Shown here one piece after another: positions 656 through 51,280 of a DNA stretch of 51,280 nucleotides. The position numbers and the translations under genes are program-made. Each line of letters begins with the position of its first letter. Position 1 is the first letter of the stretch. Origin of the DNA: a virus; IMG/VR virus record IMGVR_UViG_3300029703_000007. The stretch is one strand, 5' to 3'. The notes below the pieces were generated by a model. That model was not told the DNA's origin, ran no database searches, and saw nothing but the letters and a program-made list of their open reading frames with translations.

Positions 656-1192
656 ATGTCACAAACATTAGTAGATTTTTCAGGAAATCCCTCTGGCGCA
701 GAGCTTATGGATGATTATCTGACGCCATTGCAAGAAAACATTTTAACATCTAACAGTGGTGTAACTCGCCCTGAATATGCCAAAAAAGGGACTAAGTGGA
801 TTGATGAAAATCAAACACCTTGGCTTTTGAAACTTTATGATGGTTCTCAGGATATTGTTCTTGGAGAAATTAACCCTAACAATCATTCTTTTGTACCGAC
901 AGACCCTATGACAACTACAGGTGATTTAATTGTCGAAGGTGATGCTGGTATACCCGTACGATTGGCTGCGGGAACTGCCGGACATGTTCTAACTTCAAAC
1001 GGCCCGGGAACTTTACCGAGTTATCAGTTAGGTGTTTACGCAAATACCGATTTAAGCAATTTAACGACTGCTGGTAATACGATTATTGACAATCGCGTAA
1101 TAAATCTTATGAATAGTCGTCTTCAGGTAGTTAATAGTTTACCAGAAAATCCTGATTTAGATACGTTTTATTTTATTAAAGAGAGTATTTAA
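656..1192 (+). CDS. Tail fibre / fibre-adaptor protein (178 aa)
   Basis: ATG directly abuts the J-like stop (TAAATG); G/T/N-rich with GDLIVEG..RLAAGTAGHVLTS..PSYQ fibre-like motif; sits between J-like and receptor-binding genes. Confidence 0.6.
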   Translation: MSQTLVDFSGNPSGAELMDDYLTPLQENILTSNSGVTRPEYAKKGTKWIDENQTPWLLKLYDGSQDIVLGEINPNNHSFVPTDPMTTTGDLIVEGDAGIPVRLAAGTAGHVLTSNGPGTLPSYQLGVYANTDLSNLTTAGNTIIDNRVINLMNSRLQVVNSLPENPDLDTFYFIKESI

Positions 1193-3315
1193 TGACTGTT
1201 TATAAAAGCTCATCGAAAATTGCCGATACTGGCGTTCATGGTATTAATTTCGGGAGTCAGCAAATCAAACAGATTTTTACAGCTCCGAGAACAAACGGAA
1301 TTACTTATATTCCGCAGGACATAAAATTTGATATTGTTAACGGTACAACACCGACCCTGTATGCTGGTAGCGAGGTCTGGGTTCCTTACGGCCGTAACGC
1401 TCCTGAATATTCAATCGGCGACAGTCTGAACAGCGGTATTATTACGGCCATAAGCTGGGACGGCTCGGCTTTGTTTTATAAGGTTCGTTATGATACAGAC
1501 CTTAATATTGATATTACTGATGACCCGGCGGTCGCAGATTTTGTTACAAGTATTGGTACTAATCACCGTTTTTATTGGTATAACACTAACGTCACTTACA
1601 GCCAAGATACGGCGCCGAGCGGCTTTGGGGGACAATACGCGCTTTGGTATGACACGGCCGAGAATGTTGTAAAGTGTACCAGCGATTCAGGGGCTACATG
1701 GAATGGATTGATTTCTTTGCCTATCGGTGTTTTCACAATGGCCGGCACCGGCGCTACAAAGACGCTTAAATATGTTTTTAACGGCGTCGGCTATATCGGC
1801 ACGACGGTTTTTGCGGTTCCGGGCGTGAAGGGGCTGATGGCCGACGGGTTGAACGAGGACGGCAGCTATAAAACTATTTCCAGAACTATTGAATATATGA
1901 CGTATCGCAACTTGAATTTATCGAGAGAAAATTTTTATTGTTTCATCAGAATGGATTTGCACGGAATCGACGGCGAACATTACATCGAAGCGGACGAGTT
2001 ACCGGAGACGGCAAAACAGTACACAGTTTGTTACCGAAAAACAGATAATACCCTTTGGTGGACGACAGAAGCCAACAGCACTTCATGGTTTCAGATTTGG
2101 GCTATTCCGGTTGGTTTTATATCATGCGACGGCACAAAAATAACATCTTGGGAACCGGCTAAAAACTTTATAAAGGTTTATCAATACAATTCCTATGAAC
2201 CGCAACAAATACTTGTTAACATAAGCGGTACTGCGTCAACCGACATTACATTCAAGAGAGGGGTATACTACATTCGCGCACAAGGTGCCGGCGGTGGCGG
2301 TGGTAATTATGCATATCCTTATGGTAATGGTAACGGCGGTGGTTCTGGTGCAGGTTTTGAAGGGTATATTTATGTAAGTAAAGAATTTTCTTCGAGTGTT
2401 ACTACAGGAGTTGGTGGAAATAGCGCATCAGCTGGTGTAAACACTCAAATAAACGGGGTTATGCTGTTAGGTGCTGGTCAAGCTGGTCCAACCACTTCAG
2501 GAGGAACTGTTGACCCATCTGGTGTACCCGGTACTATTACTATCAATAGTAATAATTTAAATAATCTTTTTACTATTATATCAGCTACTGTAAATCGTGA
2601 CGGTAATTACGGCTCCAAAGCCATTGGCGGCAATAGCGTATTAACTAACTCAGGTGCCGGTCAAGGTGCCGGTGGTGCCGCTACTGCACCGGGTGCGGGT
2701 GGCGGTGGAACGTCATCCATTGGCGGCAAGGGCGGTCCCGGTGGCGATGGAGAATGCCTTATTCAGTATATTGGTTATGAACCCGAGGGGGGGGTAACTA
2801 AGCTAGAGTATTTTCAAACCCCAACATTAACTGCGTCAATAACCCCTGTTGCAGAGGGTAATATTGTCGTAACCTCAAGCTACAATAATACGAGTTCTTG
2901 GAACAATTTGTGCAACAACAGTTATATTATGAGGAATACTATTTCAACTACCTCTGATAGCGGTTATTGGCAGATGAATGGTTCTAATACTCAATGGCTG
3001 CAAATTAAATTTCCCTATACATTGATAATAAAGGGAATGACAATCGCAAGCCGACCGAAAGATAATTATACCGGAACGGTAACGGCCTATACGAACGCCG
3101 ATAAAATCGTTAACATGGGTTCAGTTACGACCAATGCTAAAGCAACTAACTTTACATTAACTAACTTCGGAATTGGAGCTTTTGTAACAGATACAATTTA
3201 TCTTTATATTACGGATATGAATGAATGGTACGGTTTGCAGAATTTGCAGATAAGAGGATATAAGGTTTTAGACAACTCTCTCTCTCTCTGTCTTTTTTCC
3301 CTGAGCCAGACCTAG
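1192..3315 (+). CDS. Receptor-binding tail fibre protein (707 aa) with glycine-rich domain and C-terminal discoidin (F5/8 type C)-like domain
   Basis: TAATG overlap with upstream gene; Gly-rich block aa ~355-527 (RAQGAGGGGGNYAYPYGNGNGGGSGAG ... GGKGGPGGDGECLIQY); C-terminal WQMNGSNTQWLQIKF...WYGLQNLQIRGY resembles a carbohydrate-binding discoidin fold. Confidence 0.75.
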   Translation: MTVYKSSSKIADTGVHGINFGSQQIKQIFTAPRTNGITYIPQDIKFDIVNGTTPTLYAGSEVWVPYGRNAPEYSIGDSLNSGIITAISWDGSALFYKVRYDTDLNIDITDDPAVADFVTSIGTNHRFYWYNTNVTYSQDTAPSGFGGQYALWYDTAENVVKCTSDSGATWNGLISLPIGVFTMAGTGATKTLKYVFNGVGYIGTTVFAVPGVKGLMADGLNEDGSYKTISRTIEYMTYRNLNLSRENFYCFIRMDLHGIDGEHYIEADELPETAKQYTVCYRKTDNTLWWTTEANSTSWFQIWAIPVGFISCDGTKITSWEPAKNFIKVYQYNSYEPQQILVNISGTASTDITFKRGVYYIRAQGAGGGGGNYAYPYGNGNGGGSGAGFEGYIYVSKEFSSSVTTGVGGNSASAGVNTQINGVMLLGAGQAGPTTSGGTVDPSGVPGTITINSNNLNNLFTIISATVNRDGNYGSKAIGGNSVLTNSGAGQGAGGAATAPGAGGGGTSSIGGKGGPGGDGECLIQYIGYEPEGGVTKLEYFQTPTLTASITPVAEGNIVVTSSYNNTSSWNNLCNNSYIMRNTISTTSDSGYWQMNGSNTQWLQIKFPYTLIIKGMTIASRPKDNYTGTVTAYTNADKIVNMGSVTTNAKATNFTLTNFGIGAFVTDTIYLYITDMNEWYGLQNLQIRGYKVLDNSLSLCLFSLSQT
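3276..3298. repeat. (CT)7 dinucleotide repeat (3276-3289) followed by T6 (3293-3298) at the 3' end of the fibre gene
   Basis: Read directly: gacaa ctctctctctctct gtc tttttt ccc. Confidence 0.95.
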
Positions 3316-3326
3316 AGCCAAGTGAA

Positions 3327-3611
3327 GTGACTTATTATTGCTATGATGATACGGGAAGTAATTACACTTATTTGTATACAACGACAACCGATTTTGTAGT
3401 TGGCGAACCTGTTACTTTTCATATCAATAAGCAAATAAAAGATAATGTTGCGTATACAGAGTTGGCGACTTCTTCTGCCGATTTTAACGATACTGTTTCA
3501 GTAACCCCGACGGAGTTGAGAACAAATAGTTTTAAATATAAATTATTAATGTCTGGATATTACTTAACTTATGAATTCAAACGAACCCCTGATTATGATT
3601 TTACAGAATAA
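3327..3611 (+). CDS. Hypothetical 94-aa ORF; frame open from 3264 with no ATG and no SD; probable C-terminal extension module of the fibre protein
   Basis: ORF track (GTG start); the same frame is open upstream through the (CT)7 tract back to 3264; no Shine-Dalgarno before GTG 3327. Confidence 0.5.
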   Translation: MTYYCYDDTGSNYTYLYTTTTDFVVGEPVTFHINKQIKDNVAYTELATSSADFNDTVSVTPTELRTNSFKYKLLMSGYYLTYEFKRTPDYDFTE

Positions 3612-4022
3612 TTAGGCAGTTCTCTCCCAGATATTAACGGTCAAATTTGTTCTGGTTATTGTCGCTTTAAGACCTGATTTGGTAGAATCGGTAGTTACGC
3701 CGTAGATTCCTCGACTGACACCAGTACCAGCAGATGAAGAAAGAACTTCACTAGCGTTTCTACCATAAGCGGTTTTTTCAGCATATAAAACATCGTTTGT
3801 ACCTTGAATAATGCCATATTTGCCATCGGGATTTGCAGAAACATTTACAGGACCTTGTAAGCCAAGAGCTAAACCATTACCTGCAACACTTGCGGATGTA
3901 TTAACATCAATAACAATATTTGAGGCAACCTTAGTCCAAGTTGAATTGCTTAATATAATTTCCAACGGGCAAGTGTCTTGCGTACCAAAATATATACTGC
4001 CAATCGGATATAAACTATTCAT
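3612..4022 (-). CDS. Tail-fibre-tip-like protein (136 aa) encoded antisense to the late operon
   Basis: N-terminal LYPIGSIYFG...STWTKV motif as in conserved fibre-tip/collar modules; G/S/T/N-rich; its stop abuts the stop of 3327..3611 (TAATTA); weak RBS. Confidence 0.5.
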   Translation of the reverse strand: MNSLYPIGSIYFGTQDTCPLEIILSNSTWTKVASNIVIDVNTSASVAGNGLALGLQGPVNVSANPDGKYGIIQGTNDVLYAEKTAYGRNASEVLSSSAGTGVSRGIYGVTTDSTKSGLKATITRTNLTVNIWERTA

Positions 4023-4046
4023 AAGATTTATTACGCGATATAAAAC

Positions 4047-4075
4047 TTGATTAATAAATAAAAGCTTGTTAAAAT
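4047..4075 (+). promoter_or_regulatory. Sigma70-like promoter TTGATT-17 nt-TAAAAT
   Basis: TTGATT 4047-4052, 17-nt spacer, TAAAAT 4070-4075, just upstream of GGAGG 4085-4089 and ATG 4098. Confidence 0.5.
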
Positions 4076-4097
4076 ATTATTCATGGAGGTATTTAAT

Positions 4098-4292
4098 ATG
4101 GATAATATGGTTGAAATTATAAAAGAAGCTCGTAAAGCTGGTATGCAAACAGCATTAATATTGTTTGCTGCTTTATGCGTGGTTGCAAGTTTATTTGCGT
4201 TTTATATTTATCAAAGTTATCAGCCAAACTATGCTACTATTACTCAAATGCAAGATGGTGAGAATAACAAACAGGAAATGATAAATGAGTAA
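4098..4292 (+). CDS. Small membrane protein (64 aa; ORF-track 4083..4292)
   Basis: GGAGG 7-8 nt before ATG 4098; one TM helix TALILFAALCVVASLFAFYIY. Confidence 0.6.
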   Translation: MDNMVEIIKEARKAGMQTALILFAALCVVASLFAFYIYQSYQPNYATITQMQDGENNKQEMINE

Positions 4293-4374
4293 ACAAATTC
4301 AAATAGTTAAATTAGTCCTTCCTCGAGGAGGGGGTCGTGCAACCGGAAGGGGCGGTAAAAGTGGACGTGGTTAA
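4285..4374 (+). CDS. Possible 29-aa Arg/Gly-rich upstream ORF (MSKQIQIVKLVLPRGGGRATGRGGKSGRG)
   Basis: ATG 4285 overlaps stop of preceding gene; reads through the SD-masking hairpin and over the GTG 4337 start in another frame; below ORF-track cutoff. Confidence 0.25.
   Translation: MSKQIQIVKLVLPRGGGRATGRGGKSGRG
4317..4332 (+). promoter_or_regulatory. Hairpin CCTTCC-TCGA-GGAGGG masking the GGAGG Shine-Dalgarno of the 4337 start
   Basis: 6-bp stem (one G-U) with TCGA loop; 3' arm is the only SD for GTG 4337. Confidence 0.4.
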
Positions 4375-4618
4375 ACGTAAAGTAATTGCTCTTTGGTTAC
4401 ATTTCTTTTTAAATCGTATTGGTTCTAAACATCCTGAATTTCTTTCTGACTTACTTAATGATTTGAATATTTCAGAACGTCATAAAATTATCATTAAATC
4501 CAGATATGTTGACAAGCTTAAGTTTAAGCAAATACCTGATGTTAAAGGTGTTAATTGTGAATTAAGACAGGTTATGAATTTGCATAAAGAAGTCATAGAC
4601 AAACTTATAAATCTTTAA
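4337..4618 (+). CDS. Small HTH regulator resembling sigma-70 region 4 / LuxR-GerE type (93 aa)
   Basis: LNISERHKIIIKSRYVDKLKFKQIPDVKGVNCELRQVMNLHKEVIDKL matches region-4 HTH pattern; GTG start (alternative GTG 4361). Confidence 0.5.
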   Translation: MQPEGAVKVDVVKRKVIALWLHFFLNRIGSKHPEFLSDLLNDLNISERHKIIIKSRYVDKLKFKQIPDVKGVNCELRQVMNLHKEVIDKLINL

Positions 4619-12728: not shown

Positions 12729-13085
12729 TTAATTCTCCACATGATGATAACTGCCTTCAGCAGTTTTCTGCCATACCCGAGCTTTATTTTTTTGATGTTT
12801 ATTGTAAACCTGTTTGTAAAAAACATCATTGTAATGAGTTACATCATTTAATAACCCTAAAGTAATAATTTTTCCAGTAATTGAATGCCAACGTGCAAGA
12901 CCGCAACAAACGATAAAAACATCAGCTAATTCTTTCCCAGAATCTTCAACAGTTACAGCCTCTTTCCATTCTCTAAGTTCTTCTTCAAGTTTCAAAAGTT
13001 GACCATTAAGTGTAGCTGTTGGAAAACAATTTAAATGCCATTCAGTAATTTCTGTAGCTAATTCAATCCATTTCTTTTTGTTCAT
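12729..13085 (-). CDS. MazG-like all-alpha NTP pyrophosphohydrolase (118 aa)
   Basis: LKLEEELREWKEA...GKELADVFIV = EExxE...ExxD metal-binding pattern. Confidence 0.55.
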   Translation of the reverse strand: MNKKKWIELATEITEWHLNCFPTATLNGQLLKLEEELREWKEAVTVEDSGKELADVFIVCCGLARWHSITGKIITLGLLNDVTHYNDVFYKQVYNKHQKNKARVWQKTAEGSYHHVEN

Positions 13086-13266
13086 TTTTTAAACCTTTTA
13101 ATATTTCTGGACGTATATAAAATTTATAAATGCAATCAGCATTCGCAGCAATTTCATCAGTTGTAAAAATTTTTAAATCGACAAGCGTTGTAATTAATGC
13201 CGTAAGAATTACATAATTATGTAAGTCTCCATATTTCAAATCTTTAAAATCTTCAGGTAATACCAT
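13063..13266 (-). CDS. Hypothetical protein (67 aa)
   Basis: ORF track. Confidence 0.5.
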   Translation of the reverse strand: MVLPEDFKDLKYGDLHNYVILTALITTLVDLKIFTTDEIAANADCIYKFYIRPEILKGLKNEQKEMD

Positions 13267-13327
13267 AAATATCTCCTAACTTTAATAAATTGACAGACTT
13301 TTACCGGTCTGTCGGCGGTTGTCAACA

Positions 13328-14194
13328 TCAATACGGGACCCTATCCTGTATCAAACTGTTAAACGGTTGAACGGGCTGCTGTCCAGCAGGTGCCATAGGC
13401 ATACCCATAGGAGCCTGCGGCTGTTGCGGCATCGACATACCCTGAGCGTTGTTAACAAAGTCATAAGCCGGTGCAGGCATTGCAGGTGCAGCAGGTGCCA
13501 TAGGCATACCCATAGGAGCCTGCGGCATAGGCATTGGTGCTGTCCCAGGTGCTGAACTAATAGGTGCTGCGGATGCTCCAGCCGGAACAGCAGGGGCCTG
13601 ACCACCAAACAACTTCATCGGGTCAGCGTTTATTGAACCTTTAATTGCCTGACCGTATCCAACAAGCTCATAAGCATTCGGATTCCAGTAAATGCCACCA
13701 TCTTTTTCGGTATGTACAGTTAAATTGACACTTGCAACAACATAATCACCAGTTTTAACCTCTCCTGCTTCAACTTTACGATAAGCGCCGTTTTCAAATT
13801 TGTAAGTTGAAGGACAAAAAGCTGATGTACGAATTTTAATGATATAACACCCTTTATAACCATCACGGGTATTATACGGTACATTTGACCCCTGCGGACA
13901 AGCGGGGCTATCTCCGTTAATAATTTTCCAAGCAAATCTTGTCATTTCAAGTTGCTCAGGATTCGTATTTGCATATTGTGGATAAATTTTTGCAACTTCC
14001 TGAACAATATACGGCCAAACATTCTGCATAAATTCGGTTTTAGGAATTGCAAGGTCGATACGATGTTCTTTGATAGGCTGACCGTTTTTATCTACTTTAG
14101 GCTGTTTGCTATAAAAATCGCTAGCCTGTTCAAATTTATTAGGGTCTCCGCCAACAATACGTCCGGCAGGGAGTTTAAAACATTCTAATGTCAT
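13328..14194 (-). CDS. ssDNA-binding protein (DUF2815-like) with Pro/Ala/Met-rich repeat tail (288 aa)
   Basis: N-terminal FKLPAGRIVGGDP...IDLAIPK pattern and synteny next to DUF2800-like nuclease; low-complexity PMGMPMAPA repeats. Confidence 0.65.
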   Translation of the reverse strand: MTLECFKLPAGRIVGGDPNKFEQASDFYSKQPKVDKNGQPIKEHRIDLAIPKTEFMQNVWPYIVQEVAKIYPQYANTNPEQLEMTRFAWKIINGDSPACPQGSNVPYNTRDGYKGCYIIKIRTSAFCPSTYKFENGAYRKVEAGEVKTGDYVVASVNLTVHTEKDGGIYWNPNAYELVGYGQAIKGSINADPMKLFGGQAPAVPAGASAAPISSAPGTAPMPMPQAPMGMPMAPAAPAMPAPAYDFVNNAQGMSMPQQPQAPMGMPMAPAGQQPVQPFNSLIQDRVPY

Positions 14195-15267
14195 TTCTTT
14201 TCTCCAAAATATTTTTCTGCAATTTTACTTTCATCAACTGCAACGAGTTTCAAACCGTTATCCGGTCTATAAGTGCATTCGGCTACAAAATCCTCTGGTA
14301 CGCCAGCTTTTTTAGCTTGTGCAGGTGTCATAAGCTTTTCAACACGGATGTCAATACCTGTCATTGCTTTAATAAAATCAGCATTGATATTTTTATTCCA
14401 CGTTGTCTGACCTAAAGCCGGGACGATTGAATAACCTTTAACACCATTGCCTTCTGACAATCTGTGCTTTGCTAAATCCTCATAAGCGTCATAAGATTGT
14501 TTTAAGACTTCTTGAGCGCGTTTGAGGTTTGTTAGCATCCATGATAGGCGTTCGTTGCTTATTTCACTATCAAAAGCTAATTCTGCAACGTCCACAGCGT
14601 TCATAGTCGCTATTTGAGCCGCAGGGCATTGAGAGAGCGACTGGCATTTATAGCATTGTGCGCCGCTGCAAACTGTTGGTGAGGGGTTGACAAGAGTTTG
14701 AATTAACTTGTCATGCAGTTGCATCAACTCATTGTAGCTTACCTGCCACTCTCTCATACTCCCTTGCGGATGATACGGTCGGGGTTGAAAAATTTTGAAC
14801 ACTATCAGATTCGGATAATAACCTTCATGTTGTTTGCAAAATCCAATCGCATGACTGATTAATGTCCAATTCATTTTCGGTTCGATAATTTGCCAACCGT
14901 ATTTCAAATCCGCAATGGTTAAAATACCATCAGCACATTTAACGCAATCGGCACGTCCGCGAATTTCCCAGCCGTTACCGGAATAAGATATATCCATTTC
15001 AACCTTGCAATTACCGGAAGTTATAAATTCGAAATAATCACGACAATTTTCGACCATTTCATCGGTTATAAATAAACCGTTCATTGCCGATTGTCCGATT
15101 AATGTTTCTGGGTTAATACCATTTGCAATTTGTTCGGCAAGCCAATGGACAGCATTGCCTTCATCGGTTACTTCAGTTGAAAAATCAAAAGGCTGTATGT
15201 TACCTAAAGATTTATAACCATTGCAGGCCATAAAACGCGGAAGTTCTGTTGCAGTTAATGATAACAT
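14191..15267 (-). CDS. PD-(D/E)XK exonuclease, Cas4/RecB-like (DUF2800-like) with Cys cluster (358 aa)
   Basis: ADLKYGW core motif; CSGAQCYKCQSLSQC cysteines. Confidence 0.7.
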   Translation of the reverse strand: MLSLTATELPRFMACNGYKSLGNIQPFDFSTEVTDEGNAVHWLAEQIANGINPETLIGQSAMNGLFITDEMVENCRDYFEFITSGNCKVEMDISYSGNGWEIRGRADCVKCADGILTIADLKYGWQIIEPKMNWTLISHAIGFCKQHEGYYPNLIVFKIFQPRPYHPQGSMREWQVSYNELMQLHDKLIQTLVNPSPTVCSGAQCYKCQSLSQCPAAQIATMNAVDVAELAFDSEISNERLSWMLTNLKRAQEVLKQSYDAYEDLAKHRLSEGNGVKGYSIVPALGQTTWNKNINADFIKAMTGIDIRVEKLMTPAQAKKAGVPEDFVAECTYRPDNGLKLVAVDESKIAEKYFGEKK

Positions 15268-15270
15268 AAA

Positions 15271-15981
15271 TTACAAACCTTTTTTAACCAATTCATTAAT
15301 TACATATTTAAGAGCCTGTGTATTGTCTCTCAACTCAGCAGCTCCCTGATAAGAAGTGCCGTAAGTAGCATTAACACCGGCAATTACATTCTGCATAAAG
15401 TTGGCATCGAGGATTTTCATCTGCAAACCATTACGCAACTGTTCGAACATTCTGTTATAAAGAGATTCCGGGGTTTCTGTTACAGGAGTTACCGGTGCCT
15501 GCGGAATACTCACAGGAGACTGCGCCGCCATAGGTATTACAGGAGATTCAACAGGGGTTGCCGGAGCGACAGCGTTATTAATAAAATCATACGCAGGGAT
15601 TACAGCCGGCTGTGATACTGTTGAATCAACAGGTACAATCGATGCTGCCGGAGCATAAGGAGTTACCGTAGTCTCAGGGATTACTGATTGTTTTTCTGCA
15701 ACGGGAATCTGTAATTCAGCTTTAATACGGTTATATTCTACATCACTGATACCACGCCGCCGCTGCCAAATACCATTGGAAGTCATTTTATGATTTGAAC
15801 TGTGGATTCTTTCATCCCACGGCAAACCTTCTTTATCCAAAGTTAAGACATCAGATTCTTCAGAATTAGGAATATAAGCAACTTCTGCAATTTCCTTAGT
15901 TTGTTTAACCGGTTCATCAGTTAAAACTTCCGCAATTTTTAACAGCTCATCGACTGTCAGTTCTTCAAGTGTAATTTTCAT
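15271..15981 (-). CDS. Replication-module protein of unknown function (236 aa) sharing short motifs with polymerase and SSB
   Basis: ORF track; LPWDERIH...RRRGISDVEYNRIKAEL and PAYDFINNA motifs. Confidence 0.6.
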   Translation of the reverse strand: MKITLEELTVDELLKIAEVLTDEPVKQTKEIAEVAYIPNSEESDVLTLDKEGLPWDERIHSSNHKMTSNGIWQRRRGISDVEYNRIKAELQIPVAEKQSVIPETTVTPYAPAASIVPVDSTVSQPAVIPAYDFINNAVAPATPVESPVIPMAAQSPVSIPQAPVTPVTETPESLYNRMFEQLRNGLQMKILDANFMQNVIAGVNATYGTSYQGAAELRDNTQALKYVINELVKKGL

Positions 15982-31917: not shown

Positions 31918-32220
31918 TTACATTAATTTACTATCAACTTGTTCGCGTATAACCGCAATAGCTTCTTGATTTAAAGCCGTTTTTAGCAATTCAACGATAG
32001 GACCAATATCCAAATCGCCGCTGAAGTCTATTATTTGGACGAGTAGCGTCGTCTCTAAAACTCGAGTCCCGTCGGTATGCGTATAAAGCCCCTTGCCCTC
32101 TGTTATCGTGCAATCTCCGACAATACCGCCAACAATTTTATAAGCATCTGTTGTTAAAATTTCTTGCTGTTTGGTGTCTTTGTCGTTAAGCCCTATATAC
32201 AAATTAAATTTTGTAAACAT
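31918..32220 (-). CDS. Hypothetical protein (100 aa; ORF-track start 32262 lies upstream of the predicted transcription start)
   Basis: AAAGGA SD before ATG 32220; the -10 box of promoter copy 2 is at 32253-32258. Confidence 0.55.
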   Translation of the reverse strand: MFTKFNLYIGLNDKDTKQQEILTTDAYKIVGGIVGDCTITEGKGLYTHTDGTRVLETTLLVQIIDFSGDLDIGPIVELLKTALNQEAIAVIREQVDSKLM

Positions 32221-32252
32221 TTTTCGAATCCTTTCTTTATGTTTATACTTAA

Positions 32253-32281
32253 TATATAACATAAATTATAAATGTTGTCAA
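32253..32281 (-). promoter_or_regulatory. Leftward consensus promoter copy 2 (TTGACA-17-TATATA)
   Basis: Minus-strand TTGACA = 32276-32281, TATATA = 32253-32258. Confidence 0.65.
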
Positions 32282-32402
32282 TACTTTATGTTAAAAATCT
32301 GTTGGCTAAAGGTGTTAAAAATGTTAAAAATGTTTTTAATAAAATGACTTCATTCTTCTGAAACCCTTGGTATACTTGGAATCTAGAGAGTTGTTAATAT
32401 TT

Positions 32403-32592: not shown

Positions 32593-32650
32593 GGGGGGGG
32601 GTGGTCCCGGGGTGTTTGGAGCTTCTCTTACCCCAAACCCCGAAACACTG
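32593..32650. other. GC-rich island in the AT-rich control region (G9 tract, TCCCGGGG, GGGGTGTTTGG...CCCCAAACCCC)
   Basis: Read directly; G9 = 32593-32601. Confidence 0.6.
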
Positions 32651-32666
32651 AAAACACCAAAAACTC

Positions 32667-32695
32667 TTGACAACACTTATAGTTTATGTTAATGT
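32667..32695 (+). promoter_or_regulatory. Rightward promoter TTGACA-17-TAATGT heading the packaging/structural operon
   Basis: TTGACA 32667-32672, TAATGT 32690-32695, then AAGGAG SD and ATG 32719. Confidence 0.6.
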
Positions 32696-32718
32696 CCTTT
32701 CTGAAAGGAGAAAATTCC

Positions 32719-33504
32719 ATGTATTTAACGATTGATAGCGTTAGAAAATGGCGAGTTTATAAAGTATACGATGAACTCGGAGAACTCGTTTACATGAACG
32801 CAGCAAAACTGCCTGATATAGTTGCTTTACGTAACATTTCCTGTGCAAGGTCTTTCAATCCTTTGATGACTTATAAAGTTGTCATTGGGGATAAAGAATA
32901 TGATAAAAAAACTGATGCAATGAATGATGTTGTCAAAAACATCCCTTACAAAACGCCTAAATTTAATTTGGAGGTCAGAGGATATATGAATGACAGATTC
33001 ATTGTTTGCGACCAGACAAATGAGATATTCAGAAGTCAATATGAAGCTTGTCAAAGATATGGTATAAATAAATCGAATTTAAGCAACCATCTGCGGGATA
33101 GAAATTTAATCAGAACGGTTAAAGGTTTTTCATTCCATTATTATAATGCTTTGGACGAACAAAGACAGCTTATGAAGAAGTGGACGCCGCTTATGTATAA
33201 TATAAGCGGGCAATATTGGGGGAATTTTGACGCGGAGCAAGTCTACAAAAGCTATAAGTACCGTCATCCGCTTGATGATTCACAGCCGAACAAGCCTGCT
33301 TTTAATTATACGCCTTGGGCGCCTATTATTCCTGACGGCAATGACCCTATTCCTCCCGAAGCGTTAAGGTTCCCGGTGCCGGGACAGACCCCCCTTCCGG
33401 TTCGGCACTGTAATCTTCAGGCATTGTATGAAACCGAGGAGCTTCCGTGGCATCGGCCTAACAGCTCAAGACAGATTGACTTAGGAGATAATCCATGCTA
33501 TTGA
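32719..33504 (+). CDS. Protein with homing-endonuclease-type HTH; compositionally chimeric (261 aa; ORF-track 32686)
   Basis: IFRSQYEACQRYGINKSNLSNHLRDRNLIRTVKGFSFHYY; the 3' third (from ~33180) is markedly GC-richer. Confidence 0.55.
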   Translation: MYLTIDSVRKWRVYKVYDELGELVYMNAAKLPDIVALRNISCARSFNPLMTYKVVIGDKEYDKKTDAMNDVVKNIPYKTPKFNLEVRGYMNDRFIVCDQTNEIFRSQYEACQRYGINKSNLSNHLRDRNLIRTVKGFSFHYYNALDEQRQLMKKWTPLMYNISGQYWGNFDAEQVYKSYKYRHPLDDSQPNKPAFNYTPWAPIIPDGNDPIPPEALRFPVPGQTPLPVRHCNLQALYETEELPWHRPNSSRQIDLGDNPCY

Positions 33505-33857: not shown

Positions 33858-34475
33858 ATGACATCCTGTTATCCTACAAGTGCTTATGATATGATAACCG
33901 AGGCGGAGAGAGCCGTTCTCGAGGAATATGTCAGCTATGCTGTGGCAGAGCAACAGCGCAAACATCAACGAGTGGACCTTGCGCTTAATTTGCCCGTGCC
34001 GGCTGAGTTTATGCGCAAGGGGAGAAACTGCTTTGTTAAACCGGTGGTACTTGCGGCTCTTAGAGAGCGGCTTTTAGAGGAGAGCGCCAATCGCGATATA
34101 TCGCCTGACAGAGTGATAAGGGAATATGGGAAGATAGCATTTAGTGATATTAGCGATTATCTTGAGCAGGGGGCGCTTGGGTCTGTCCAACTTAAAGACT
34201 TCGACACCATTTCAGCTGATAAACTCGGCGCTGTCAAAAGCGTGGAAACACGCGTGGGAGCTAACGGCATGTCACAGGTCAAACTTGTGTTGCATGATAA
34301 ATTTCCTGCACTTAAAGCTTTAGCCGAGCTTATGGGGCTGCAAGCTCCTGACGCCCCCCCGGCACTTGAAGGATATGTCAAACAGGAGATACGCTCCATG
34401 GAGCAGGCGGCATTGCAAGCTCCTGAGGCAGAGTATGAGGAGCTGCTGGAGGAGGTTAACCGTGGGGACGACTAG
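33858..34475 (+). CDS. terS: Terminase small subunit (205 aa)
   Basis: Position immediately upstream of TerL; C-terminal ...KLVLHDKFPALKALAELMGL typical of Terminase_2-type small subunits. Confidence 0.7.
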   Translation: MTSCYPTSAYDMITEAERAVLEEYVSYAVAEQQRKHQRVDLALNLPVPAEFMRKGRNCFVKPVVLAALRERLLEESANRDISPDRVIREYGKIAFSDISDYLEQGALGSVQLKDFDTISADKLGAVKSVETRVGANGMSQVKLVLHDKFPALKALAELMGLQAPDAPPALEGYVKQEIRSMEQAALQAPEAEYEELLEEVNRGDD

Positions 34476-34479
34476 CAGC

Positions 34480-36204
34480 ATGAGGGCGTTGACGAGTGGG
34501 AGTGTGTCAGATGTTCAGATACGACCTTGGCATCCCTGCCCGCTTGACAATAACTCATGGCCGCCTGACTATAAAGCAGTGTATGCATGGCGGACCGCTA
34601 TGTTGCGCAAACTCCGTTCAACACCCGGTGCACTTGAGGCAGCTCGTGCTTATTATAGTACGCGGCCCGGGAATTTTATAATGGACTGGATGGATACATA
34701 TGACCCGAGACGGCAACATAACAAATGGGTGCCTTTCATCTTCTTTAAACGCCAACAGGAGGTAATAGACTTCTTTGAGAGTTGCTCAAGTGACAAAGAG
34801 AGCGGGCTGGTGGAGAAATGCAGAGACTTTGGGCTGACATGGCTTGCCTGCGCTTATTCCGTATGGCGATGGCTTTTTATTAAAAACGATGCTGTCGGAT
34901 GGGGGAGCCGTAAAGAGACGCTTGTCGACAAGCCGGGGGACCCGGACAGCATATTTGAAAAAATAAGGCTTATCTTGCATAGGCTTCCTCGACTTTGGCT
35001 GCCTGAGGGGTTTAGCTTCGGGCGGAATTGTACTTATATGAAATTGCTTAATCCGGCTACAGGAGCCATTATCGCCGGAGAGGCAGGGGATAATATCGGA
35101 CGCGGCGGTCGTCGAAGCTGCTATTTTGTTGACGAAGCCGCGCATATTGAGAGAGCAGAGAAAGTAGAGGCGGCTTTAGGAGATAATACTAACGTCCGTA
35201 TTGATATTTCATCAGTGAATGGTGTCGGGAACGTTTTTCATCGAAGACGTGAAAATGGTGTTGTATGGACTCCGGAGCGAAAGGAATACCCGATTGGTTA
35301 TGTTAGAGTATTTGTAGCGGATTGGCGCGACCATCCGACTAAAACCCAAGAATGGTATGACGCTCGTAAAGCTCGGTATGAACGAGAGGGTATGGCACAT
35401 ATTTTTGCACAGGAGGTTGACCGCAATTATGCTGCCGCAGTCAGCAATACCGTCATTACATACGAGTGGATACTGGCGGCTATAGACGCTCATGTTAAAC
35501 TTCCTTGGCTAGGAGAGGCTGTAGAAGCTCATAAAGACGAATGGACGGCCGGGCTTGACGTGGCTGACGAAGGTAATGACCGGAATGCGCTAAGCTTGCG
35601 GCAATTTGTCGTGTGGCGGCAAGTGGACGAGTGGGGAGAAAGAGACCCCGGAATCTCCGCTCGTAAAGCTGTATTGGCATGTCGTCCTCATGCCGGTAAC
35701 ATTACCTGCCAATACGATTGTATTGGTGTAGGAGCGGGTGTTAAAACAGAATATAACAGACTTGCAACCGACGATGGGGTAATAGATGCAAGGCGGATAC
35801 CTTTTATTCCATGGAATGCGGGTGCGGCTGTGGAGAGACCTTTTGAAAGAATTATACCTGATGACAGAGAAAGCTTGCAAAATAAAGATTTTTTTGATAA
35901 CTTGAAGGCACAGGCTTGGTGGTCTATACGCACAAGATTTTATAAAACCTATAAAGCTGTAACGGAAGGTATAAGATATAATCCAGAAGAACTTATATCT
36001 ATTGACAGTTCGATGCAACTTTTGGAACAGGTGAAAAAAGAACTTATGCAACCGACAGTCGGGTACAGTTCTCGGCTTAAAATGCTGATTGAAAAGAAAC
36101 CGAATGGAATGAGGTCACCTAACTTAGCCGACAGCGGTGTTATGGCTTTTTTTCCTCTGTCGGAGAATACAAATTACAGTGTGATTGGTTCATATGGGAT
36201 ATAA
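34480..36204 (+). CDS. terL: Terminase large subunit (574 aa; ORF-track 34366)
   Basis: ATG 34480 lies 4 nt after the TerS stop; Walker B-like CYFVDEAAHI; size and position before portal. Confidence 0.85.
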   Translation: MRALTSGSVSDVQIRPWHPCPLDNNSWPPDYKAVYAWRTAMLRKLRSTPGALEAARAYYSTRPGNFIMDWMDTYDPRRQHNKWVPFIFFKRQQEVIDFFESCSSDKESGLVEKCRDFGLTWLACAYSVWRWLFIKNDAVGWGSRKETLVDKPGDPDSIFEKIRLILHRLPRLWLPEGFSFGRNCTYMKLLNPATGAIIAGEAGDNIGRGGRRSCYFVDEAAHIERAEKVEAALGDNTNVRIDISSVNGVGNVFHRRRENGVVWTPERKEYPIGYVRVFVADWRDHPTKTQEWYDARKARYEREGMAHIFAQEVDRNYAAAVSNTVITYEWILAAIDAHVKLPWLGEAVEAHKDEWTAGLDVADEGNDRNALSLRQFVVWRQVDEWGERDPGISARKAVLACRPHAGNITCQYDCIGVGAGVKTEYNRLATDDGVIDARRIPFIPWNAGAAVERPFERIIPDDRESLQNKDFFDNLKAQAWWSIRTRFYKTYKAVTEGIRYNPEELISIDSSMQLLEQVKKELMQPTVGYSSRLKMLIEKKPNGMRSPNLADSGVMAFFPLSENTNYSVIGSYGI

Positions 36205-47806: not shown

Positions 47807-50800
47807 AGACATAATCGTTCAAAAATCTGTTTTACCGTTTAGACAGGATTTTGAAACTTTACGATTACAAGATTGTAAAACACCTCAAGAAATTGTCAAT
47901 AAACTTGTGCCCTTTAATTTTGTAAATTGTAAACTTATTGTAACTCTTGATGGTGAAATTTTACCTGAAGAAAAATGGGGTCAAAATTTAAAAAAAGGTC
48001 AAATTATTGGTCTTAATTATATTCCTACTGGTGGTGACGATGGTAAAGCTGTCATGCAAGTTATTGTAACCATTGCAGCTATAGTAACCACCGCGTATCT
48101 GGGTTCAATAGCGGAAGATGCTATAGTTGCTGGTAATTATGGAACAGCCGCTTTAGCTAGTGCTGGTATTATAGCAGTTTCTATGGTATCCAGTATGGCT
48201 ATGAATGCACTTATGACTACTCCCAAACAATCAGATGGAACATTAGGTTATAAAGATTCTCAAACTCAATTTGTTGAAGGAGCAAGTAATTCTATTAATA
48301 AATTTGGGGTTATACCTGTTAATCTCGGGACGAATCGATTATTCCCTCCTCAAGCTGCTTTACCTTATACAGAAACCAGTGGTAATGACCAATATTGTCG
48401 ACAGTTGTTTACTTATGGTTATGGTAAGGTAACTGTTATTGAACGTAAGTTAGGTGAAACAGTTTTAGACAATTATGATTATGTAGAACTTGAAGATAAA
48501 CTTAACGCAGATTTAAATTCTGGTACATCTTTGTATGCTAATGATGTATATCAGGAAGATTTTAGTATTAAAGTTACAAAGGAAGAATCTCCTTATCTTC
48601 GTACAACTCAAAAAGACTGCGATGAATGCATCTTAGATTTTACATTTCAAGGATTGGTTAATGGTATTACTCAAGGTAAATATGCGGGATTAAAATTAAA
48701 AACAACCGTTCAATTTGAAATTCAATATGCTCCTGTAAATACAGAGAATTGGAGTACATCTATTAACGGTGCTACAATCCAAGAACAATCGATAAATGCT
48801 GATATAAGTGTTTATTTGCTGTATAGATTTTTGAACAGTTGGGTTTGTCGTCGTTATTTTCTTGCCTTAAATACACAAACTGGGGGCATAAGCATTCATT
48901 ATGTTGATTCTCAAGTTCATAAACTTGAATATCCTTCTTTATCATCTGAAAATGTGTATCTTGGTTACTATGAAAACGGTTCTTTTCATGATTTGAGACA
49001 AAATCTCGTTGGTTCTTCGATTGAAAGTATTGATGATTTTATTGTTACTACAGATAATTCTGATAAATCCAATGCTCTGATAACTGTTGGGAGTGGTAAT
49101 ATTCTCGGTAGCACTTCGATGATGACGGTAACAGATGCGACATCAAGAGTGTTAAGAGTTTCTCGACGAATAGTTTTTCCAACAAGAGGTCAATATCAGA
49201 TAAAAGTAAATCGTTTAACAGACGATTCAAATATTGATAGTTTATTAAATGATTCTTATTGGACAGCTTTAAAATCAATTACATATCGAAATCCTGTTAA
49301 TTTTTCAGATATTTCAGGTACAGCTATGAGAATTAAAGCTACAGACCAATTAAACGGTACTGTAAATTCTTATAATGCTATTGTTTCAACACTTATAAAA
49401 TCTTATGACCCTGATAAAGATTTATGGGTAGATGGTGTTGCGAGTTCTAACCCTGCTGATATTTTTCGATATGTTTTGCAATCTCCAGCTTTTGCAAAAC
49501 ATGAACAAATTACCGATGATAAAATCGATTTAGAAAAATTAAAAGAATGGTGGATTTATTGTAATTCATTAAATTTAACTTTTAATAAAGTTGTAGATTC
49601 AGATACAAGTATTGACGATGTTTTAAATGATATTTGTGCTGCGGGTGTCGCAACATTATCAAAAGTTAATAATATTTTTAGTGTTGTTATCGATAATGAA
49701 CGCCCTTATGTTAAAGGGTTGGTAACACCTCGTAACAGTTGGGATTATAAAGGAAATATCAGTTATCCAGAACTTCCTGATGCTCTTCGTGTTGAATTTC
49801 GCAATGCTGAAGTAGGTTATAATACCGATGAACGTATTGTTTACATGGACGGATTTGACGAAAATAATGCAAAGTTGTTTGAACGTTTAGAATTTTCAAG
49901 TTGTACAAACGCTGATTTGGCTTATTGGTATGGTAGACGATATTTTGCTACAGCTTTATTACAACCCGAAACTCACACTTTCAAAATGGATTTTGAACAT
50001 TTAACTTTTAATCGTGGGGACAGAATCAATCTCGTTAACGATGTCATTCTTGTTGGTGTCGGACAAGGACGTATTAAAGAGCTTATCACAGACGATGAAA
50101 ATAATGTTACCGGTTTTGTTATTGATGACGAAGTAAATATTCCTACTAGTAAAAATTTTGCGGTTCGTATTAGAGACAATAACGGCAAGGGGTTTAATTA
50201 TTATTTGTTAAAACAATTTGTCGGAGTTAGCAATAGTTTTACTTTTGCACAATCTTTAACGGCTGAAAATGCCCCCGCTATTGGAAGTCTTTGCGCTTTT
50301 GTTGAAGACGGTAAAGAGCTTGATTTAATCATAACACAGATAAAAACTACCAGCAATGAAACAGCAACTATTACCGCTGTAGATTATGCTCCTGCAAGAT
50401 TTACACCTATCGAAGAATTTCCTGAATGGTCAAGTAATATTACAATTCCGGGAGATTTTTATAAACCTTATGCTCCTGAATTGAATGGTGAAATTAAATC
50501 AGATGAATCTGTTATGATTAGAAATTCTGATGGTTCTTTAACTTCAATTATGATTATACCTCTTAAAAATCGTAATGAAAATTCGGTAATCCCGGTAATA
50601 CAAGTGAAAATTACAGGAGCTACTGAATGGTTTATACCAAACACTTTGAAAAACGATTCAAACGAGTTGGTTTTAACAGGGCTTAGTGACGGTTCATATT
50701 ATGATATAAGCATTCGTTATCAGCGTCAGACAGGTTTGCAGTTGCTTTCAGATGCTTTGTATATTAATAACGTTAAATTTGTCGGCGGTTCAACACCTCC

Positions 50801-51280
50801 AAAAGATGTTGAAAATTTTAGAGTTACTGTTACAAACGGATTAGCGCTTTTTGAATGGACTCCGACTGATGATGTTGACATATCTCATTATGTAATTAAA
50901 TATTCTTTGGATACAGAAGATGTTAGCTGGGAAAGTGCACAGACAGCTGTTGCAAGAGTTACCAGCAATACGGTTACCATGATTATACATCGAGGTATGT
51001 ATCTTATTAAAGCAGTTGATTTAATGGGTTTTGAAAGTAAGAATCCAACTACTATTATTTCAATTGACAGCGGTGCTTATAAAAATGTTGTTGAAGAATT
51101 GATACAGCATCCAAATTGGGAAGGGAGAAAAGAAAATACATACGCAAGTGGTGGTATTTTAACTTTATCTCCTGAAAAATCCCAAGGATATTATTATTTT
51201 AATCCAGAACCTTTAGATTTAGGAGAAGTATACGAATGTTCTTTAACAGCTGATGTTAAAAGTAATGCTGGAAACCGTTC
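47796..51280 (+). CDS. Tail-tip protein: gpI-like N-terminal region fused to gpJ-like host-specificity protein (about 1346 aa in total, continues at 1..655)
   Basis: ATG 47796; hand translation shows no in-frame stop in the stretches checked; gpI-like IIGLNYIPTGGDDGKAVMQVIVTIAAIV...; J-like core; FN3 GSTPPKDVENFRVTVTNGLALFEWTP; not in the ORF track because it has no stop inside the window. Confidence 0.85.
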   Translation, partial: MLNEDIIVQKSVLPFRQDFETLRLQDCKTPQEIVNKLVPFNFVNCKLIVTLDGEILPEEKWGQNLKKGQIIGLNYIPTGGDDGKAVMQVIVTIAAIVTTAYLGSIAEDAIVAGNYGTAALASAGIIAVSMVSSMAMNALMTTPKQSDGTLGYKDSQTQFVEGASNSINKFGVIPVNLGTNRLFPPQAALPYTETSGNDQYCRQLFTYGYGKVTVIERKLGETVLDNYDYVELEDKLNADLNSGTSLYANDVYQEDFSIKVTKEESPYLRTTQKDCDECILDFTFQGLVNGITQGKYAGLKLKTTVQFEIQYAPVNTENWSTSINGATIQEQSINADISVYLLYRFLNSWVCRRYFLALNTQTGGISIHYVDSQVHKLEYPSLSSENVYLGYYENGSFHDLRQNLVGSSIESIDDFIVTTDNSDKSNALITVGSGNILGSTSMMTVTDATSRVLRVSRRIVFPTRGQYQIKVNRLTDDSNIDSLLNDSYWTALKSITYRNPVNFSDISGTAMRIKATDQLNGTVNSYNAIVSTLIKSYDPDKDLWVDGVASSNPADIFRYVLQSPAFAKHEQITDDKIDLEKLKEWWIYCNSLNLTFNKVVDSDTSIDDVLNDICAAGVATLSKVNNIFSVVIDNERPYVKGLVTPRNSWDYKGNISYPELPDALRVEFRNAEVGYNTDERIVYMDGFDENNAKLFERLEFSSCTNADLAYWYGRRYFATALLQPETHTFKMDFEHLTFNRGDRINLVNDVILVGVGQGRIKELITDDENNVTGFVIDDEVNIPTSKNFAVRIRDNNGKGFNYYLLKQFVGVSNSFTFAQSLTAENAPAIGSLCAFVEDGKELDLIITQIKTTSNETATITAVDYAPARFTPIEEFPEWSSNITIPGDFYKPYAPELNGEIKSDESVMIRNSDGSLTSIMIIPLKNRNENSVIPVIQVKITGATEWFIPNTLKNDSNELVLTGLSDGSYYDISIRYQRQTGLQLLSDALYINNVKFVGGSTPPKDVENFRVTVTNGLALFEWTPTDDVDISHYVIKYSLDTEDVSWESAQTAVARVTSNTVTMIIHRGMYLIKAVDLMGFESKNPTTIISIDSGAYKNVVEELIQHPNWEGRKENTYASGGILTLSPEKSQGYYYFNPEPLDLGEVYECSLTADVKSNAGNR
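51182..51280. repeat. Second copy of the terminal overlap (equals bases 1-99)
   Basis: Direct comparison. Confidence 0.95.

Follow-up and report, generated by a model that had tools for sequence, protein, structure and literature searches.

Fibre Gene, CT Tract, and Downstream Module

The 51,280-nucleotide (nt) viral DNA analyzed here, IMG/VR record IMGVR_UViG_3300029703_000007 (hereafter, the window), contains a tail-fibre gene whose distal part is divided between two reading frames at a short dinucleotide repeat. The open reading frame (ORF) of the fibre occupies positions 1192..3315 of the forward strand, 3′ of a gpJ-like tail-tip gene and of a gene for a protein of 178 amino acids (aa). 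Its 707-aa product includes a predicted discoidin/CBM32-like β-sandwich (fibre aa 536–691; 2797..3264, forward strand), which ends in the conserved motif YGLQNLQIRGYK and is followed by a pyrimidine-rich linker of hypervariable length (3265..3329, same strand). The linker holds a (CT)7 tract at 3276..3289 and a T6 run at 3293..3298, both on the forward strand. Read in the fibre frame, it leads to the C-terminal tail ...VLDNSLSLCLFSLSQT and to a TAG stop codon at 3313..3315 (forward strand); this is the module-off state of the gene.

In the −1 frame no stop codon occurs from 3264 until a TAA at 3609–3611, and this frame holds an ORF of 94 aa with a GTG start (3327..3611). It encodes a C-terminal module, TYYCYDD...DYDFTE, of about 93 aa plus the stop (3330..3611, forward strand), which in the window is offset by −1 from the fibre frame and in relatives is fused to the fibre. 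Removal of one CT unit gives an 805-aa product, ...DNSLSLSFFPEPDLEPSEVTYYCYDD..., in which the linker reads VLDNSLSLS...PEPDLEPSEV, and addition of one T to the T run gives an 806-aa product; the junction peptide of the fused product is ...NSLSLS(L/F)FPEPDLEPSEVTYYCYDDTGSNYTYLYTTTTDFVVGEPVTFHINK. The initial annotation, a model's reading of the sequence without database searches, had placed the tract, the T run, the stop codon and the open −1 frame (3264–3611) exactly, and had anticipated that a CT deletion or one extra nucleotide in T6 would restore the fusion, as the computed products confirm.

The (CT)7 tract is the sole dinucleotide repeat of at least 5 units in the 51-kb window, and a first-order Markov simulation predicts only 0.003 dinucleotide repeats of at least 7 units per window. 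Being alone in its class and so far above expectation, it is not a chance feature.

Near-Identical Genome with an In-Frame Fusion

The fused product exists in nature. A search with the hypothetical 805-aa fusion retrieved a protein of exactly this length (P0001; 99% identity, 100% query coverage) encoded on a contig of 51,231 nt. The corresponding genome, read from ENA (L001) and from Logan (L002), matches the window with 99.93% identity along 8.9 kb and 99.73% identity along 4.1 kb. Across 13 kb, the window and L001 are distinguished by 15 substitutions and by one CT unit, (CT)7 in the window versus (CT)6 in L001, which is the sole gap in the alignment. The fusion of about 805 aa foreseen in the initial annotation is therefore present in a genome whose only indel is one CT unit. 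A T-to-C change beside the CT tract of L001 also interrupts the T6 run, leaving T4.

Regarding the substitutions themselves, 9 of the 15 fall within the 2.1-kb fibre gene (1192–3315) and a further 4 within a 32-nt stretch of the gpJ-like gene (48087–48118), a distribution which indicates that the divergence between the two genomes is concentrated in the putative host-recognition genes.

Tract Length and Reading Frame in Related Genomes

The protein collection queried with the hypothetical 805-aa fusion contains 231 fibre homologues, and scans of IMG/VR and JGI metagenomes provided 8 usable loci. Comparison of the junction among relatives, a check that the initial annotation had proposed, reveals that the state of the gene follows tract length, with both in-frame and out-of-frame alleles. 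For the allele found in the window, here type A, the module is in frame (on) with A(TC)7 (L157/L158) and (CT)8 (L151), and out of frame (off) with A(TC)6 (L006), (CT)10 (L153/L154), C9+T6 (L152, L162) and T6C5 (L159). L162 is a short contig with the same C9+T6 allele as L152, obtained with the 94-aa ORF as look-up query. Among relatives the type-A linker measures 52–68 nt and contains (CT)4–10, C5, C9, T6 and GAGCCN repeats. The in-frame linker peptides differ widely from genome to genome, and their sequences suggest an origin by compensating frameshifts.

In a sister allele, type B, the module shares 43% identity with that of the window. Here the CT repeat is absent, and the junction consists instead of GGTC-A(n)-TACTTAG with identical flanks. 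The state is again related to the length of the run: A9 (L004) and A12 (L156) are on, while A8 (L005, L007, L025) and A10 (L155) are off, ending in the tails KKNT and KKKILS, respectively, followed by a stop codon.

All on and off counts were taken among representatives of 90%-identity protein clusters. The CT allele is on in 10 and off in 9, and the A allele is on in 15 and off in 22, the latter comprising 17 in the −1 frame and 5 in the +1 frame. The frame of the module thus varies between genomes, with 0, −1 and +1 all represented. Within single 90%-identity clusters, on and off proteins occur together and all three length classes are found (~535, 700 and 790–800 aa).

The clearest examples are series of otherwise identical proteins. 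P0030 (783 aa) matches P0304 (696 aa, tail KKNT), P0307 (698 aa, tail KKKILS) and P0302 (536 aa) at every shared residue, the identity holding up to the 2–3 frameshifted end residues of each shorter protein. Likewise, the pairs P0290/P0291 and P0318/P0319 are identical and lie on contigs 1 nt apart (52712/52711 and 50987/50986). This indicates that tract changes outpace any amino-acid substitution in about 700 codons. Furthermore, the same junction is occupied by three repeat chemistries across alleles, (CT)n, poly-A and C9+T6, which points to selection for mutability at that boundary.

Second Tract at the Upstream Domain Boundary

One domain boundary upstream, between the Gly-rich stalk and the sugar-binding-like domain, the fibre gene contains a poly-G tract (G8, 2787..2794, forward strand) within the EPEGGV segment, which is in frame in the window. 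The initial annotation was right about the CT tract and overlooked this one. Relatives with G5, G8 or G11 are in frame, and those with G9 (L006) or G10 (L160) are out of frame and yield a product of about 532 aa. Altogether, 14 cluster representatives terminate in frameshift tails directly after YEPEG..., so that this tract is on in 68 and off in 14. L160 has both tracts in the off state, and gene calling there splits the fibre into three ORFs (532, 128 and 94 aa). From the sequences of these relatives, the G8 tract behaves as a second, upstream frameshift switch.

A +1-frame ATG is located at 2777–2779, just 5′ of the G tract (tATGAACCCGAGGGG...). A G9 tract places this codon in the frame of the domain that follows, and gene callers then predict separate ORFs beginning MNPRGGVT... 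from it (P0330, P0334, P0365), the translation of which is putative.

Predicted Structure of the Fibre Domains

The discoidin-like label given to the penultimate domain in the initial annotation is backed by the predicted fold. In the AlphaFold2 model of the C-terminal segment, the sugar-binding-like domain (residues 13–170 of the modelled segment) reaches predicted local distance difference test (pLDDT) values of 76–92. A Foldseek search against the PDB returns APC10/DOC, factor VIII C2, CBM32 and discoidin II (E-values of 8e-5 to 3e-3, target template-modelling scores of 0.45–0.63), and the structural matches of aa 536–691 also include F5/8 type C phage proteins. At the level of sequence families this support is missing: the same residues have neither a Pfam match at E ≤0.1 nor a PHROG match, and a PDB profile search gives only APC10, with an E-value of 0.23. 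On the basis of the model, aa 536–691 are plausibly a sugar-binding receptor module. The full-length fibre model is too poor for use (mean pLDDT 51.6), and the whole fibre has no Pfam or PHROG family match. A profile search with the module alone drew in the whole fibre, so its matches describe the N-terminal domains, and only P0249, P0195 and P0284 are informative.

A natural deletion provides information on the module as a unit. In P0294 (417 aa), the N-terminal 335 aa are joined in frame directly to the module at a repeated ...SYEP boundary motif, which suggests that the module functions as an independent terminal unit. This ...(Q)Y.SYEP motif is common to the domain boundaries at fibre aa 329–335 (~2176–2196) and 526–532 (~2767–2787). 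The same arrangement, the N-terminal 335 aa followed directly by the C-terminal module, is seen in natural variants of 417–420 aa (the P0294, P0320, P0371 set), and variants of 240 aa in a related cluster are without the greater part of the N-terminal region. From these sequences, the fibre domains seem to be shuffled by recombination between boundary motifs.

Immediately downstream of the module lies a convergent gene of 136 aa on the reverse strand (3612..4022) with a weakly tail-protein-like N-terminus (Gp10_C with an E-value of 1.7e-4, below the Pfam cutoff; tail protein phrog_6465 with 8e-5). It is always inherited together with the type-A module, with 97–100% identity among the loci of that type, and type-B loci do not have it; it may belong to the same exchangeable cassette as the type-A module.

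Proposed Mechanism of Tip Switching

Taken together, the data are best explained by hypermutable tracts, that is, contingency loci, which are located at the domain boundaries of the fibre gene and probably give rise to nested fibre tips. In this mechanism, slipped-strand mispairing during phage DNA replication would add or remove repeat units, and any change in length not divisible by 3 would shift the frame and end the protein a few codons later. Three nested products would result: the stalk of about 532 aa, the stalk with the discoidin/CBM32-like domain of about 700 aa, and the full fibre with the module of about 800 aa. The window would represent the second of these, its G8 being in frame and its (CT)7 not. 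Tract changes are expected to be frequent and reversible within a lineage, and truncated fibres should still assemble through their common N-terminal part, so that mixed tips could serve as bet-hedging for adsorption or host range. A more demanding version, in which the two tracts (poly-G, then (CT)n, poly-A or poly-C) switch independently and a single lineage continually makes all three nested tips, has about an even chance of being correct.

The initial annotation had taken CT slippage to toggle a C-terminal module of ~100 aa. This proposal gains support from the natural fusion, the matched alleles, the poly-A series and the approximately equal numbers of on and off states. Three features of contingency loci are found here: the repeat is intragenic and exceeds chance expectation, its unit number differs between near-identical genomes, and length changes other than multiples of 3 switch the product, with both states common.

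Several observations weigh in the opposite direction. Switching is deduced here from a comparison of assembled genomes, and length calls in the long homopolymers (G9–G11, C9) could include some sequencing error. The toggled module has no Pfam or PHROG family match, and its structure prediction, recommended in the initial annotation and carried out here, gives a pLDDT of only ~35. The type-A module displays very few substitutions, mostly nonsynonymous, with a ratio of nonsynonymous to synonymous substitution rates (dN/dS) of about 1, and constraint on this allele may be relaxed. Its synonymous divergence (dS) is ≤0.05, compared with 0.05–0.75 in the neighboring domain; a value so close to zero is in keeping with recent spread of the cassette. 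Finally, simple sequence repeats (SSRs) are under-represented in the tail-fibre genes of the BASEL coliphages (10.1101/2025.10.21.683753), and such switches are therefore not a general expectation.

Should the version with two independently switching tracts hold, with chemically different repeats having evolved at one boundary in different alleles, it would show directly that selection acts on mutability as such in a gene by which a phage recognizes its host, and the fibre would be a bet-hedging device for adsorption, combinatorial and heritable, in a phage population in nature. If tip switching is confirmed, host recognition in such phages would be a mixed, heritable and reversible trait and not a fixed one, which would bear on genome-based host-range prediction, on annotation and on phage-therapy design. 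At present, such fibres are called as two or three separate "hypothetical" genes. The dozens of wild genomes, in all switch states and from a widespread uncultured siphovirus lineage, form a natural data set, and the three repeat chemistries at one junction offer a clean test of whether mutability is selected.

Alternative Explanations

Slippage during expression, by RNA polymerase or the ribosome, could in principle yield short and long fibres from every genotype, in which case the genomic frame would matter little. Some features suit this explanation. The zero frame of the A8 allele reads GTC AAA AAA AAT, with A_AAA_AAT in phase and the module in the −1 frame; runs of at least 9 A or G are generally known as transcriptional slippage sites; and the off states are too common for a strong deleterious effect. 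However, the module is found in the 0, −1 or +1 frame depending on the genome, and this rules out a fixed programmed frameshift, which requires a constant offset. Slippage during expression also leaves the genomic length series unexplained, and transcriptional slippage on CT repeats is not an established mechanism. This explanation is consequently judged improbable, with the qualification that expression slippage at the A8–A10 or G9–G11 alleles may make the off states leaky.

The T6 run, which the initial annotation had named as a possible site of ribosomal or transcriptional slippage, does not qualify. It is unconserved, being T4 in the in-frame twin and absent in other relatives. A programmed −1 frameshift on T6 was rejected: the zero frame reads CTT TTT TCC, so that the run is out of phase for an X_XXY_YYZ slippery site, T_TTT_TTC being phased only in a different frame. 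No stimulatory structure was found in 3299–3400, where RNA folding gives −11 kcal/mol with a z-score of +1.39, and 185 of 200 shuffled sequences fold as well.

One-way decay is about as unlikely. According to this explanation, the module is dispensable and the frameshifts are inactivating mutations at an error-prone spot, as in the stf gene of laboratory lambda. The fibre indeed occupies the place of the side tail fibre, which in lambda is generally regarded as dispensable, and the dN/dS of about 1 in the type-A module is in line with decay. Moreover, some relatives lack the module. In L026 the fibre ends ...AEGSYVW, and L003 (IMGVR_UViG_3300045988_136916) retains at 3430–3520 only an A8 tract and the linker remnant YLVNEPSVEPT. 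The L003 fibre, 879 aa in length, also has an extra insertion of ~170 aa in its N-terminal part. Against decay, all off-state genomes preserve the ORF of the module, with no stop codon or indel inside it. The type-B module has a dN/dS of 0–0.2, on/off pairs included, which indicates purifying selection even in comparisons between states. The in-frame lengths G5/G8/G11 and A9/A12, together with the compensated-looking linkers, suggest repeated restoration of the frame, and the direct fusion of the module to the N-terminal part in P0294 favors a module retained for some function. For some lineages, such as L003 and L026, one-way decay is possible.

An assembly or sequencing artefact is very unlikely. 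The true genome would in that case carry (CT)6, and the extra unit would be a contig error, as the initial annotation had also considered. Dinucleotide and homopolymer tracts are error-prone, and the closest relative differs by exactly one unit, but the identical 707-aa off-state protein is read on 5 contigs, and its database entry names ENA, JGI/IMG and Logan as sources; one of the 5 is a SPAdes-style NODE contig of 51,236 nt with ~10x coverage. A 14-nt repeat is comfortably inside short-read accuracy, and the on/off pattern recurs over dozens of genomes and three tract types.

It is equally hard to sustain that the locus contains two genuine genes, with the 94-aa ORF translated from GTG 3327 and the fused and split arrangements being equivalent. 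Gene callers do predict this ORF in off-state genomes, where a word-index search with the module returned only those calls, and GTG 3327 is conserved. This codon, however, is merely the Val codon of the conserved PSEVTYYCYD segment. As the initial annotation had noted, the frame of the module has no ATG ahead of it and no Shine–Dalgarno-like motif before GTG 3327, compared with a clear GGAG/GAGG/AGGA motif in front of 16 of the 41 other genes of the window. Neither a promoter above chance nor a terminator nor an Rfam family was found at the junction, and in type B the stretch from the last upstream stop to YYCYD contains no ATG, GTG or TTG.

Finally, an invertible segment of the Mu G or P1 C type came into question because the gene directly after the module is tail-protein-like and reads from the opposite strand. 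It was rejected: inverted repeats around 2900–4500 do not exceed 27 nt (at 74% identity), none brackets the module and the reverse gene, and no invertase was seen among the ORFs scanned.

Genomic Context and Relatives

Positions 1–99 of the window are identical to positions 51182–51280, an exact repeat of 99 nt which indicates that the window is a circularly closed assembly of ~51,181 bp. The gpJ-like gene runs across the circular junction. In L001 the tail genes follow the order tail terminator, tail assembly chaperone (TAC), tape measure protein (TMP), DUF1833, NlpC/P60, FNIII-A_GpJ (1346 aa), the 178-aa gene and the fibre; the phage is a siphovirus with a lambda-like tail module.

Among 50,697 GenBank phage records, neither megablast with 2600–4100 nor tblastn with the fibre gave a match, and only the portal protein detects distant relatives, the best being Rhizobium phage P106B with 55% identity. 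Neither a prophage copy nor a host was found in bacterial genomes: scanning with a degenerate YGLQNLQI pattern gave chance matches only, and tblastn of the loci so retrieved returned no fibre homologue. The labels of the samples, together with the TPA "Caudoviricetes sp." records, give a hint of human-associated origin.

Similarity to L001 (compared stretch, 12886–15536) stops at position 4079 of the window. Past that point L001 carries DDE_Tnp_IS1595 and KilA-N/BstA_C genes that are not alignable to the window, and the sequences on the two sides characterize this part as a variable accessory region.

Elsewhere in the window, a G9 run (32593–32601) is situated in the intergenic space between divergent gene blocks and a C7 run (34354–34360) just 5′ of a 612-aa ORF starting at 34366; these are possible further length-variable tracts. 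The 612-aa ORF (34366–36204) has no Pfam match and coincides with a rise in G+C content, 0.486 at 34001–36000 compared with ~0.33–0.40 elsewhere. The divergent genes 31918–32262 (reverse strand) and 32686–33504 have near-identical sequences abutting their ATG codons, at ~32263–32290 and ~32658–32685, respectively (TTGACAACATTTATAATTT-ATG and TTGACAACACTTATAGTTT-ATG). A Shine–Dalgarno motif is absent from both, and the TTGACAACATTTATAATTT/TTGACAACACTTATAGTTT pair may be a repeated regulatory or leaderless-promoter motif.

Comparison with Known Systems

Slipped-strand phase variation is a textbook strategy of bacteria, exemplified by the contingency genes of Haemophilus, Neisseria and Campylobacter (for a review, see PMC6625227). 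The fibre gene shares with these systems an intragenic repeat, a change in unit number, the resulting frameshift and an on/off effect on a surface-interaction protein. It differs in that the carrier is a virus and that the distal domain is removed without loss of the protein. To our knowledge, experimental proof of repeat-driven phase variation in phages is limited to Campylobacter phages and, very recently, T-even phages.

With regard to lambda, Hendrix and Duda reportedly found in 1992 that the side tail fibre gene stf is split by a frameshift in laboratory lambda PaPa. In both cases the fibre gene follows the gpJ tail-tip gene and occurs intact or frameshift-split in nature, and phages with the split gene are said to be viable. 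Lambda, however, represents a single fixed laboratory mutation, unlike the repeat-driven polymorphism observed here across many wild genomes. An identity with lambda Stf is not indicated, since no sequence homology was detected with Pfam or PHROG, and in the position of a downstream Tfa-type chaperone there is the reverse-strand gene with only a weak Gp10_C/tail-protein match.

The addition of C-terminal domains, for example Ig-like ones, to phage structural proteins by programmed ribosomal frameshifting was reportedly described by Fraser et al. in 2006. Both situations have in common that a structural gene is followed, in a different frame, by a small additional C-terminal domain, but the fixed offset, the in-phase slippery site and the usual stimulatory structure are all absent here.

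The closest parallel is found in the receptor-binding protein (RBP) genes of Campylobacter Fletchervirus, for which hypermutable poly-G tracts are described (Sorensen et al., Cell Rep 2021, 35:109214; as reported in 10.1101/2025.10.21.683753, PMC12823448). According to what that account relates, tracts inside RBP or fibre genes shift the frame and produce a population with mixed receptor-binding phenotypes, as proposed here, and the upstream G8 tract belongs to the same repeat type. No sequence relationship was found by tblastn of the fibre against the 50,697 GenBank phage records. The present phage is instead a siphovirus with a lambda-like tail, in which two tracts in one gene would give nested truncations and not a whole-protein on/off switch, and its distal tract is a dinucleotide, poly-A or C9+T6 repeat depending on the allele.

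In T2 and T4, short coding repeats undergo reversible frameshifts by polymerase slippage, which were likewise read as bet-hedging (Gomez, Barrick, Waters; 10.1101/2025.10.21.683753). There, homopolymer-type repeats of at least 6 nt in agt, rIIA and other genes were involved and the variation was measured experimentally. Here, the tracts are long (G8–11, A8–12, (CT)6–10), lie in a fibre gene and are known from comparative data only.

Repeat-driven contingency loci are, as a kind of mechanism, already known. The novelty lies in three points: one fibre gene has two tracts, placed at consecutive domain boundaries; the truncations are nested, in place of a whole-protein on/off switch; and a single junction holds a dinucleotide, a poly-A or a poly-C tract according to the allele.

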